NCBI RefSeq assembly: GCF_056746865.1
Contig: NZ_CM163382.1
Length of the DNA: 64,000 nucleotides
Reading direction: 5' to 3' (one strand)
Within the stretch, counting starts at the first letter, position 1. Every line of letters starts with the position of its first letter. The notes under the pieces were generated by a model, which did no database searches, was not told the DNA's origin, and worked only from the letters and a program-made list of their open reading frames with translations. Position numbers and translations under genes: made by a program. Below, one piece after another: positions 26,771 through 37,156 of this stretch.

Positions 26771-26884
26771 ACAGTCTGCCAGGGAAATGCCTGATAACAT
26801 TACGTTAACCAACTGAAAACATGACACAAACCCCTCATACTCCTCCTGTTTCTCTTGCGTGACCGCCTTGTCGTTAATAGAATA

Positions 26885-26928
26885 AAACGATCGATAAAAC
26901 AGGTATCGATCGTTGCTATCGATCGTTT
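26885..26928 (+). promoter_or_regulatory. Ag43 phase-variation switch (three GATC sites, OxyR/Dam)
   Basis: ACGATCGATAAAACAGGTATCGATCGTTGCTATCGATCGTTTAT about 220 bp upstream of flu start; GATC at about 26889, 26908, 26921. Confidence 0.7.
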
Positions 26929-33674: not shown

Positions 33675-33733
33675 ATGAAAACATTACCCGACACGCATGT
33701 ACGGGAGGTATCGTGCTGCCCGTCTCCAGTCAC
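33675..33733 (+). pseudogene. cbtA: cbtA/yeeV-family toxin gene, 5' fragment, disrupted by IS21-family insertion
   Basis: MKTLPDTHVREVSCCPSPVT then the IS end; the reading frame resumes after the IS at 36371 (..TIWQTLLTRLLDQH) and then diverges from the family. Confidence 0.7.
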
Positions 33734-33832
33734 TGCGTATTCCGCTCTATTCGATCACGGATTGGCATCGAAGTCCGATCAGCGATTCGCATCCATTCGA
33801 TCAACCGGGAACTTAACTTTTTCTACCGCTTT

Positions 33833-34588
33833 TTAACGCGTTTTTTCGCTGCTTTCCACTACCGGGGGATTTTTCCTCAGTGACTCTCCCTGAAGGACCA
33901 CCCGGTGTGAGTTATGTACCAGTCTGTCCAGGATGGCATCTGCTGTTGTTGGGTTCTCCATCAGACCATGCCATTTATCTACCGGGAACTGGCTTACCAC
34001 TATCGTGCTGCTTTGTCCGTAACGATCCTCTATGAGCTCCAGAAGGTCATTACACTGGGCGTTACTTAACTGTTCCAGCCCCAGATCGTCCAGGATTAGA
34101 ACCTGTATTTTTTGCAACTGTTTCAGATATTTCAGCCAGCTGCCATCAACACGTCCCTGAGCCAGTTGTTCCAGTAATCGCCCGGTTCTACAGTACCGGA
34201 CGCTGTGTTTCTGTCGACATGCCTGTTCGCCCAGCGCATTGGCTATCCAGCTCTTGCCACATCCTGTCGGACCGGTTATCAGCAGGTTTTTCCTGTGGGT
34301 TATGTAGTGGCCGTTCAGCAGTTCTCTCATCTGTTCAGCCCGCAGACCTCTTGAGGCCGGATAGCGCAGCCCTTCCGGTGTTGCCTGGTATTTCAGGCCG
34401 GCATTTTTTCTCAACCGTGCCACACGGCTGTTTTCCCTGCTCAGAAGCTCGTCATCAACCAGCAGCGTCAGCCTTTCCTCGAACGACAGTTCGTCGTAGG
34501 TCTGAGGCGTTTCCCGCTGCCGTATCAGGCTCCCGGCCATCGCCGGGAGTTTCAGTTGGGTCAGTTTGTTTAACAGGTTATCACTCAT
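33833..34588 (-). CDS. istB: IS21-family helper ATPase IstB
   Basis: 251 aa from MSDNLLNKLTQLKLP...; Walker A GPTGCGKS. Confidence 0.85.
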   Translation of the reverse strand: MSDNLLNKLTQLKLPAMAGSLIRQRETPQTYDELSFEERLTLLVDDELLSRENSRVARLRKNAGLKYQATPEGLRYPASRGLRAEQMRELLNGHYITHRKNLLITGPTGCGKSWIANALGEQACRQKHSVRYCRTGRLLEQLAQGRVDGSWLKYLKQLQKIQVLILDDLGLEQLSNAQCNDLLELIEDRYGQSSTIVVSQFPVDKWHGLMENPTTADAILDRLVHNSHRVVLQGESLRKNPPVVESSEKTR

Positions 34589-34604
34589 ACTGTTGTTCCT
34601 TCTG

Positions 34605-36140
34605 TCAGTGGTAGTAGCCCGGACCACGCAGGTTTTCATGCTCTGAAGCATATGCCGGATGTTGTTCGCCCTGGCGGGATAATGGAAGCTCCAGGTTCTC
34701 CCGATGGTGACGCAGCAGATTGTCGATAAAGCGTCTGTCAGGGGCGTTATAGTGCAGGGCAACGTAACAGGCCTTTTCCAGCCGTTCCGGGCCGTATTTT
34801 TTCTGAAGTGCCAGCAGCCCCAGAACTGCACGATAAGCCAGTTCCGGATGGGGTTTTGCCTTCAGCATGGATTCAACCACCCGGCCTGTGGACGGGCCCG
34901 TACGTTTTCCCTGCTCGATCAGGCGTTCCGGTGTCCATGTCCCGTGCTGCCGGTGGCGCTCTGGCATGTGAAGCGGATTGGTTGTGTGTTTATATTCATG
35001 TGTGCTGCGCGGATGTTGCGCCACACACTGCCCCTTGTGCCAGAGCTGTACCACCGACTGCCCCGCCTTCAGTGACAGACGCTGACCGACCAGTTCGTGT
35101 GGAACGGAGTACCAGTGACGGGCATATTCAACGTGGTAGTCAGGGCCAACCTTCACAGCTTTGTATTCCGTGTATTCATAAGGTGCCAGAGGCAGCGGAG
35201 AGAGTGCTGGCGCATCCAGTATGCGGAAGCGTTCTGCACGGGTTTGATTGCCGTACCCCTTCATTGGCCGGTTATTCATGTCTGTCAGTAACTCCCTAAG
35301 GCGCGCATTCAGCGCCCTGAGCGTGTGGAAGGTTTCATTACGGATGCGGGCAAGAAGCCATCGTTCGACGATGAGGACGCCGTTTTCTGCTTTTGGTTTA
35401 TCTTTAGGTTTGCGTGGTCGGGCCGGGATGATAACCGTGCCATAGTGCTCAGCCAGTGCCTGATAACTGTCGTTGATGACAGGCTCATATCGATCGGCCT
35501 TTTTCACTGCGCTTCTGAGGTTATCGGGGATGAGCAGCTTCGGTACGCCGCCCAGGAAGGTCAGGCAACGGCTGTGGGCATTTAACCATGACATCATGTC
35601 CTGACCTTCGCACGCTTCAACGTAGGTATAGTTGGACGCCCCCATTACGGCCACGAAGATTGCCACGCGGCGTATCTCACCGGTGTCCGGATTAATAACA
35701 GGAACCGTAGGACCACAGAAGTCGATAAAAAGCTTTTCGCCGGCACGATGCTCCTGGCGCATGGAGAGACGTCGCGTTTTTTTCCACTCCCGGTAGCAAC
35801 GGCAGAAGTGCGAGTATCCCATCGCTTTGTTACCCGCCTGTGCCTTGTATTCCATCCACAACAGTTGCCGCGTCACACCTGGTTTTCTCATTTCCGTATC
35901 GAGGTACAACATGTCAGGCATTACAAGCTCTGATGCAAAGGTGTCTTTGGGCGGAAAAATGAGTTTCTCCAGCGTGTCATGGGATATATCAGCAGGTAAT
36001 GGCCATGACAGAGAAGAGGCTTTGAAGCGGGCAAGAACCTCAAAAACGGTTGAGGCGCTGATGTGTAACGTCAGTCCGATACAACGGTTAGTCAGCTTCT
36101 TGTCGAACTTGAGCTGAAGAATCTTAAAACAGGTTTCCAT
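34605..36140 (-). CDS. istA: IS21-family transposase IstA
   Basis: 511 aa from METCFKILQLKF...; HTH plus DDE core; AGGAG SD. Confidence 0.85.
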   Translation of the reverse strand: METCFKILQLKFDKKLTNRCIGLTLHISASTVFEVLARFKASSLSWPLPADISHDTLEKLIFPPKDTFASELVMPDMLYLDTEMRKPGVTRQLLWMEYKAQAGNKAMGYSHFCRCYREWKKTRRLSMRQEHRAGEKLFIDFCGPTVPVINPDTGEIRRVAIFVAVMGASNYTYVEACEGQDMMSWLNAHSRCLTFLGGVPKLLIPDNLRSAVKKADRYEPVINDSYQALAEHYGTVIIPARPRKPKDKPKAENGVLIVERWLLARIRNETFHTLRALNARLRELLTDMNNRPMKGYGNQTRAERFRILDAPALSPLPLAPYEYTEYKAVKVGPDYHVEYARHWYSVPHELVGQRLSLKAGQSVVQLWHKGQCVAQHPRSTHEYKHTTNPLHMPERHRQHGTWTPERLIEQGKRTGPSTGRVVESMLKAKPHPELAYRAVLGLLALQKKYGPERLEKACYVALHYNAPDRRFIDNLLRHHRENLELPLSRQGEQHPAYASEHENLRGPGYYH

Positions 36141-36686
36141 AGTGCTCCTGGATTTTCTCTTTCTGGACATTGACGTCTCCACTGGTTTAAACACGGCAAT
36201 GGAGACTGTGGTGAAAAGAGTTAATTCCCGGAGTGACTGGCAGGATGCCAATCAATGATCGGAAGCATGCCAAATCGTGATCGATTGTGATGCCAAACTG
36301 TGATCGGAGATGGATGCCAAATCATGATCGATTCGAATGCCAAACTGCGATCGATTCAGATGCCATTTTGCAGTCACCATCTGGCAGACACTGCTCACCC
36401 GGTTACTGGACCAGCATTCCCTGATTTCCTCATCGATATCGAATAAGCACTCGTCGCAGAATTCTTTATCGAGTGAGAGCCTCTGTTCAAGGACGCTTCT
36501 TTTTTTTGTTGCAACGTGCACATCCCTTCATCTTTCCGCGCCTTTGTGACCTCGTGATTTGGGGTACATGGAAAATGGGCGTAGCAAGCCTCAGCTAGAT
36601 AACTAACCGTAATAAAAGGGCTTTTCTGCGAGCAATGTAAGAGAAGGATAACTAGGCAGGTTGCAAGAAAGATAATCGTTTTGATA

Positions 36687-36721
36687 GATCAGTTTATCGA
36701 TATTGATCGTTAGTGCCGATC
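36687..36721 (+). promoter_or_regulatory. Triple-GATC motif resembling the Ag43 Dam/OxyR switch
   Basis: GATC at about 36687, 36705, 36718 (spacing 18 and 13 bp, versus 19 and 13 upstream of flu) within ATCGAT-rich sequence about 440 bp upstream of mtnK. Confidence 0.3.
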
Positions 36722-37156
36722 GATAAGAAGTGCGGAAACGTTAGACTCACCTCTGTTGCTCCATCATGATGATGGGGCTGTTGGCCCTCGAATCTATCTG
36801 TCTATTAGCATCGGCATGACAAACACCATTTGTTTCCACAACAAAAGACAATAGAAAAGTACATATGTACAAAAAGTGTGATTTATTCTGTCACTTCAGT
36901 ACTTCCTTTCGCCTAAGTTTGCCCGTAATAATTCCCCGTGCAGTACTATTGTTGCGACATAACAACATGAATTACATGGTAATAATAGATGTTTTCCTCT
37001 GCTGATTCCTGTAAGGATCATGACTCCATACGACATCATTTTTAATTTTATACAGTTCAAAAAATCTACATGTGTCACAAATAATTTTACATTTGATAAT
37101 GTATAGTTGTCACATGACAAGTTGATTATCATTCTGTGTAGACAAGGAGAACTGTT

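Follow-up and report, generated by a model that had tools for sequence, protein, structure and literature searches.

Very few Dam-dependent epigenetic switches are known to us, namely the pap-type, agn43, gtr, opvAB and std systems. The opvAB locus of Salmonella has four OxyR half-sites and four GATCs, and the OxyR site of phage Mu mom contains three GATCs; to our knowledge, phase variation has not been established for Mu mom. The gtr system has four GATCs and three OxyR half-sites, A, B and C, with AB activating and BC repressing (PMC2909390). In P22 gtr each 13-bp GATC pair (at -110/-97 and -46/-33) flanks one OxyR dimer half-site. The half-site consensus is ATAGxTxxxAxCTAT, the gtr half-sites are spaced as for reduced OxyR, and the OxyR(A) half-site has been validated by EMSA and methylation assays (Broadbent et al. 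2010; PMC2909390).

We examined a triple-GATC motif upstream of mtnK in a 64-kb stretch of DNA, referred to here as the window. The motif has GATC sites at 36687, 36705 and 36718, with gaps of 18 and 13 bp exactly as originally predicted. The triplet in the flu/agn43 leader (26889, 26908 and 26921) has the predicted gaps of 19 and 13 bp, and the pattern GATCGTTnnnnnnGATCG fits both triplets. These are the only two places in the window where three GATCs fall within 40 bp, and the window's only two pairs of neighbouring GATCs with a gap of exactly 13 bp are also here, one in each triplet. However, with 203 GATCs in 64 kb, random placement is expected to yield about 1.0 triple within 32 bp per window, and GATC clustering taken alone is weak evidence. 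The surroundings of the two triplets are not homologous, also as predicted. Local alignment of 36400–37156 with the flu leader on both strands gave scores of 20–22, which is chance level (shuffles, 20.3 +/- 2.2).

The triplet upstream of mtnK lies 156–190 bp upstream of the ATG (36531) of a small minus-strand ORF that reads away from mtnK. The features of the region are as follows, with GATCs and half-sites numbered along the direction of the small ORF.

33675–33733, plus strand: 5' part of a cbtA stump, split off by an insertion sequence.
33734–36370, minus strand: IS21-family insertion (istA, istB) in the cbtA stump; lineage-specific and outside the candidate switch.
36371–36417, plus strand: 3' part of the cbtA stump, joined to the small ORF by a deletion at about 36417.
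36418–36531, minus strand: remnant of the small CxxC-x17-CxxC ORF, ATG at 36531; codons 1–38 only, with a +1 frameshift.
36532–36670, minus strand: leader from the block to the small-ORF start codon, alignable within groups of related lineages.
36671–36721, minus strand: conserved 51-bp block and candidate OxyR/Dam switch, 5'-GATCGGCACTAACGATCAATATCGATAAACTGATCTATCAAAACGATTATC-3'; 25 distinct sequences.
36675–36689, minus strand: putative OxyR half-site 2, ATCTATCAAAACGAT, 16 nt past half-site 1; 7/10 strict, 9/10 relaxed.
36687–36690: GATC-3, at the start of half-site 2, 18 bp from GATC-2; invariant in 25/25 aligned sequences.
36705–36708: GATC-2, at the inner edge of half-site 1, 13 bp from GATC-1.
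36706–36720, minus strand: putative OxyR half-site 1, ATCGGCACTAACGAT; 7/10 strict and 9/10 Dam-type relaxed against ATAGnTnnnAnCTAT.
36718–36721: GATC-1, at the outer edge of half-site 1.
37157–38416, plus strand: mtnK, with promoters P1 (-72) and P2 (-188/-218) from PMC12632272.

Copies of the cassette formed by the small ORF and a downstream glycosyltransferase gene were collected from 20 species-representative genomes and from individually looked-up loci. Of 31 distinct loci, drawn from about 16 genera, 27 have the triplet at a nearly fixed distance from the small-ORF ATG. GATC-1 lies 165–192 bp upstream of the ATG, and between -186 and -192 in most loci. The spacing is 13 and 18 bp in most examples, 13 and 19 bp in one Citrobacter freundii lineage, and 13 and 17 bp in one Lelliottia. 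Carriers of the triplet are found in E. coli, Citrobacter, Lelliottia, Enterobacter (several species), Yokenella, Trabulsiella, Phytobacter, Kosakonia, Mangrovibacter, Klebsiella, Yersinia, Serratia and Erwinia. Kluyvera intermedia and Rahnella have kept the 18-bp pair alone and are missing GATC-1, and the triplet is absent from Kluyvera cryocrescens and from one further lineage that has a different downstream gene. Four cassette copies (L023, L025, L028 and L030), from at least two sequence lineages and all with a triple GATC, occur in Yokenella regensburgei ATCC 49455. The Kluyvera cryocrescens cassette (L011–L013, 5722–6001) has zero GATCs upstream, where a degenerate ACCGATTTTATCGATT is left, and includes two extra genes of 120 and 430 aa; this could be a naturally occurring variant that does not switch.

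When 25 distinct upstream regions are aligned, column identity is 0.993 at the GATC bases and 0.72 in the spacers. Conservation sets in abruptly, exactly at GATC-1, with an identity of 0.54 in the 15 columns before it, and extends over the 16 bp past GATC-3 (block positions 36–51), where identity is 0.83. The triplet is non-random, since it is kept in 27 of 31 loci while the bases between the GATCs diverge, and the alignments indicate that the element is maintained in evolution together with the small ORF. The window copy of the block is itself unaltered. A BLAST search of the block against phage genomes returned nothing significant, and Rfam at a permissive threshold gave no credible match.

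The block resembles an OxyR site. We scanned both strands of the window for two half-sites separated by 16 or 17 nt (255,818 placements), scoring against the strict consensus and against a relaxed one that allows Dam-type ATCG/CGAT arms. The agn43 site (26877–26923, minus strand; ATCGATAGCAACGAT-N17-ATCGTTTTATTCTAT) is the best match in the window at 16/20 strict and 19/20 relaxed, and the block ranks second at 14/20 strict and 18/20 relaxed, with the next unrelated site at 15 relaxed. The relaxed consensus favours GATC-containing sites, so that this ranking is partly circular, and under the strict consensus the block ties with two unrelated window sites. Twenty-nine lineage copies of the block average 13.7 strict and 17.1 relaxed, and half-site 2 is weak (5/10) in the E. 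mori, Kosakonia and Yokenella-a lineages. The classical N7/N8 half-site spacing discriminated poorly, with the agn43 site itself reaching merely 13/20, and was replaced by N16/17. The distal half-site of agn43 overlaps a TAGAAT -10-like hexamer of the flu promoter region.

Across lineages, the identity of half-site 1 is 0.96 at the ten positions specified by the consensus versus 0.49 at the five "n" positions. With its flanks (GATCGGCACTAACGATCAAT), it is identical to the P22 gtr OxyR(A) half-site (GATCGGTAACAACGATCAAT) at 17 of 20 positions. The conservation past GATC-3 is explained by half-site 2, which starts inside GATC-3. As judged from its sequence, the block consists of GATCs embedded in a two-half-site site of the OxyR type.

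The small ORF is a genuine coding gene, because its divergence is distributed by codon position (0.21/0.15/0.41) and its frame is the sole open one, being open in 28 of 28 distinct sequences where the other two frames never are. A protein search identified intact homologues of 54–61 aa in E. coli (P0002, in ST131 and Nissle 1917), Lelliottia, Enterobacter, Citrobacter and Kluyvera. The protein has four invariant cysteines in a CxxC-x17-CxxC arrangement and looks zinc-ribbon-like. No match to it was found in Pfam or NCBIfam, and its AlphaFold model (pLDDT 58) is unreliable. The small gene is unannotated by RefSeq in ST131, Nissle 1917 and ATCC 25922 (L006, 7946–8113, minus strand; L042), and gene callers skipped it in most Yersinia, Serratia and Klebsiella loci.

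A family 2 glycosyltransferase (GT2) of 311–332 aa follows the small ORF after 0–9 nt, or after about 82 nt in one lineage. In NCBIfam it matches PRK10073 best, at 142–153 bits, which is below the cutoff of 423. Models of the ArnC type match weakly, there are weak N-terminal matches to GtrB-like PHROGs, and the PDB matches are GT-A enzymes acting on polysaccharides. By these matches GT2 is a generic GT-A enzyme, and its database label is just "glycosyltransferase". Neither the small protein nor GT2 has a PADLOC match, and the searchable literature yielded no description of the cassette or of its GATC element.

In 12 of 20 representative loci the cassette is located just past, and convergent to, the cbtA end of a CP4-type island; two of these 12 loci are without GT2. 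The island genes there run DUF932, antirestriction, RadC, DUF987, CbeA and CbtA, and meet GT2, the small ORF and the block, in that order, on the opposite strand. In Kluyvera cryocrescens the cassette occupies the cargo slot held by flu in E. coli. Other loci are AlpA/DUF7828 integrative islands, where the cassette is beside McrBC, BREX or restriction-modification (R-M) genes. Anti-phage neighbours recur in several loci (L014, L015, L043, L045 and L047) and comprise McrBC, BREX, an R-M system of the BglI/SfiI type and a large helicase/PLD protein.

In matching E. coli genomes the island order is GTPase, agn43, DUF905, DUF932, antirestriction, RadC/JAB, DUF987 and the YeeU antitoxin. This is followed by a 33-codon cbtA stump, approximately 740 bp of unannotated DNA, mtnK-mtnA-aldolase-transporter, and yjhU. 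The stump is annotated in one of these genomes (L001) as "TA system toxin CbtA family protein, missing C-terminus". The match of the window to ST131 (L006) starts at 36417. In the window lineage a deletion has joined cbtA codon 33 to small-ORF codon 38 and removed GT2, and a frameshift was also gained. The frameshift lies in an A-run at 36500–36507 (A8, versus A7 in intact copies), a homopolymer hot spot in Asn-Lys-Lys-Arg codons. With one A removed the ORF reads MKGCARCNKKRSVLEQRLSLDKEFCDECLFDIDEEIRE and shares 97% identity with P0002, the intact E. coli protein of 55 aa. The window cassette is a fossil, in which the DNA of the block is intact, the small ORF is broken and GT2 is gone. As the cassette has decayed, the window element is not expected to control anything useful, mtnK included.

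Decay has taken another form in ST131 and Nissle 1917, where the small ORF is intact and GT2 is shattered by frameshifts. The GT2 pseudogene is found at approximately 7000–7939 (minus strand) of the ST131 locus and at 4368–4622 of L042. Its N-terminal piece is WP_000788354 (84 aa, "glycosyltransferase family 2 protein"), the ORF that delimits the "799-bp intergenic region" described in the Huening study. About 435 E. coli genomes retain the full-length GT2 pseudogene DNA, and the triplet segment occurs in about 1,080–1,100 of 5,426 complete E. coli genomes, always beside mtnK. The IS21-family element in the window encodes IstA (548 aa) and IstB (332 aa) on the minus strand. Its ends (33753–33799 and 36257–36349) contain three and five GATCs, respectively, 22–24 bp apart with one per terminal-repeat copy, and could make transposase binding Dam-sensitive.

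The original prediction offered two roles for the triplet, one of which was a Dam-sensitive element that makes the mtnK-mtnA-aldolase-transporter operon phase-variable. The plus strand of the block is indeed agn43-like, with a GATAAT -10-like hexamer and then GATC-18-GATC-13-GATC toward mtnK. The adjacency also occurs in Citrobacter sp. On2M (L040, 991–3400), where mtnK and mtnA (95% amino acid identity) are divergent beside the same block and flank; the mtnK-cassette junction is common to the two genera, probably via transfer of the whole region. However, the block is 436–486 bp upstream of mtnK. By primer extension, Huening et al. (2025) located the transcription start sites of the mtnK operon at -72 (P1) and -188/-218 (P2) and detected none in the fragment from -381 to -709 (PMC12632272), which contains the block. 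In that study lacZ fusions with at least 126 bp of upstream DNA all showed the same regulation, distal fragments were inactive as promoters and did not respond to MtnR, and the promoters and the control by MtnR and CRP were confined to 255 bp or less (PMC12632272). Moreover, a divergent intact mtnK allele (L002) shares about 380 bp of upstream sequence and does not carry the block, though this allele is cut by an IS3 remnant and shows by itself merely that an intact operon can dispense with the block. The published mapping and the divergent allele place the block outside the DNA needed for mtnK transcription and regulation, and in about 16 other genera the block goes with the small ORF rather than with mtnK. 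Phase variation of mtnK is therefore a very unlikely function, and already a largely refuted one.

The second role, a relic of a CP4-type/Ag43 region whose gene was lost, is correct in its broad lines: the block appears to be the regulatory region of a lost gene and belongs to CP4-type cargo at the cbtA end, but the lost genes are the 55-aa ORF and GT2 on the opposite strand, not Ag43. If a second agn43 gene had been lost and a diverged copy of the flu/agn43 regulatory region had stayed behind, this would account for the equal number and spacing of the GATCs, for the CP4-type island DNA around both triplets and for the 24 of 36 core positions that are identical. However, twelve of these identities are the GATCs themselves, no wider similarity to the flu leader exceeds chance, and all intact loci have the small ORF and GT2 adjacent, never an autotransporter; no Ag43-family gene was found next to the block and leader among about 50 loci. 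We consider such a duplication highly improbable. A chance build-up of GATC in ATCGAT-rich DNA would fit the frequency of triples expected at random in 64 kb, and is refuted by the comparative data, since the twelve GATC bases and their spacing are kept over about 16 genera despite 28% spacer divergence; its probability is negligible. A more serious alternative is that the block binds a protein other than OxyR, such as the zinc-ribbon-like protein acting on its own gene, another dimeric regulator or SeqA, or that it is a Dam-sensitive promoter of the IS10/traJ type that works without OxyR. The GATCG-N7-CGATC inverted repeat would suit any dimeric protein, the conserved A-rich spacer positions 26–31 may form a -10 element, a conserved Cys4 protein without a family match is encoded in every cassette, and the strict OxyR score is, as described above, shared with two unrelated sites. 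Against this, per-position conservation tracks the OxyR half-site consensus, half-site 1 is nearly that of a validated OxyR site, and the layout is the same as in the agn43 site at the top of the same scan. We regard a factor other than OxyR as unlikely, though worth keeping in mind.

Considering this evidence, we favour the interpretation that the triplet is an OxyR/Dam-type element of the small-ORF/GT2 cassette, which is a fossil in the window and does not serve mtnK. From the sequence comparisons and the analogy with agn43, we place the probability of this reading at roughly 0.65. The triple GATC would be the core of a 51-bp cis-element of a leftward two-gene cassette encoding the 55-aa zinc-ribbon-like protein and then GT2. 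This cassette is carried from host to host by the integrative islands of Enterobacterales, and in many of them it is convergent to cbtA at a CP4-type island end. Most probably the element is one OxyR tetramer site with two dimer half-sites 16 nt apart, in an agn43-like layout where two GATCs flank half-site 1 and the third stands at the start of half-site 2. By analogy with agn43, OxyR would bind when the GATCs are unmethylated and shield them from Dam, and would be excluded when they are methylated. Cells would then inherit one of two states, and the cassette would be expressed in a phase-variable manner.

The sign of this regulation is suggested by the position of candidate promoters. Our sigma-70 scan identified candidates inside the block on both strands, none of them strong or unique. 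Toward the small ORF these are the -35/-10 pairs TCGGCA-17-TAAACT and TCGATA-17-GATTAT. On the other strand, a conserved (G/A)ATTATC reads as GATAAT and faces away from the small ORF, as in agn43. A promoter and terminator scan gave neither a terminator nor, near the block, any promoter on the minus strand. The small ORF is favoured as the target, because conservation stops at GATC-1 and the block keeps an almost constant distance from the ATG. Since the candidate promoters would all be covered by an OxyR tetramer, repression by occlusion is favoured. OxyR may thus be a repressor more readily than an activator, with the methylated state ON, although we hold this view with low confidence.

A larger claim can be formulated, to which we would give even odds. 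The block may be a functional OxyR/Dam bistable switch representing an undescribed family beside agn43, gtr and opvAB. Its role would be to turn on and off a mobile GT2 that modifies surface glycans, together with the obligatory Cys4 partner of this enzyme, on islands that are rich in defence genes or of the CP4/P4 type in Enterobacteriaceae, Yersiniaceae and Erwiniaceae. In E. coli B2 strains (ST131, Nissle 1917 and ATCC 25922) it would persist as an OxyR-protected patch of undermethylated GATCs in the mtnK "intergenic region". A literature search for per-site methylation at this locus in ST131, Klebsiella and Nissle 1917/CFT073/ATCC 25922 found nothing. If the claim is true, this is a new and widespread Dam switch, and it is directly testable because the sequence rules are kept over about 16 genera. 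The occurrence of an uncharacterised glycosyltransferase among phage-defence genes points to phase-variable modification of surface glycans, which could serve as bet-hedging against phages or immunity in hosts such as Klebsiella, Enterobacter, Citrobacter, Yersinia and Serratia. Upstream of the ExPEC DHAP-shunt operon, the 799-bp "intergenic" region in fact includes an unannotated gene and a probable OxyR site, and the undermethylated GATCs predicted upstream of mtnK should not be taken for mtnK regulation. The window itself is an end state of cassette decay, and its value is as a pointer to a broadly distributed candidate epigenetic switch.

Compared by description with opvAB and Mu mom, the block shares GATCs inside OxyR sites, an arrangement in which Dam methylation and OxyR binding are mutually exclusive. 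The resemblance to gtr (P22, LT2_I and PT4_II; Salmonella O-antigen glucosylation) includes the 13-bp GATC pairs flanking OxyR half-sites, the near-identity of P22 half-site A to half-site 1, and a half-site spacing of 16–17 nt that fits reduced OxyR. The cargo is in both cases a horizontally mobile glycosyltransferase. However, the block has three GATCs and two half-sites, whereas gtr has four GATCs in two pairs and three half-sites. The next gtr half-site is 17 nt on, and by inspection the sequence of the block does not match a third half-site at the gtr-expected position. NCBIfam and PHROG searches led us to reject GT2 as a gtr-operon gene, as it is not GtrB-like. No GtrA or GtrC homologues were detected in the cassette, and the Kluyvera proteins of 120 and 430 aa have no family match.

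The closest layout is that of agn43, from which the block differs in several respects. There is no sequence homology outside the site, and the identity of 24/36 over the 36-bp core includes the 12 GATC bases. The orientation is inverted, with the 13-bp pair gene-proximal in agn43 and gene-distal in the block, and the longer spacing is 19 bp in agn43 versus 18 bp in most block lineages. The regulated gene encodes an autotransporter in agn43, in contrast to the cassette of a small Cys4 protein and GT2. The sequences suggest the same architecture rather than demonstrable homology. Both have three GATCs, with a 13-bp pair flanking one OxyR half-site (putative in the block) and a third GATC 18 or 19 bp away at the edge of a second half-site, 16 or 17 nt from the first. 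The agn43 site lies beside or over its promoter, and the block contains candidate promoters, none of them strong or unique. Both are single tetramer-sized sites (a putative one in the block) and are carried on CP4-type island DNA.
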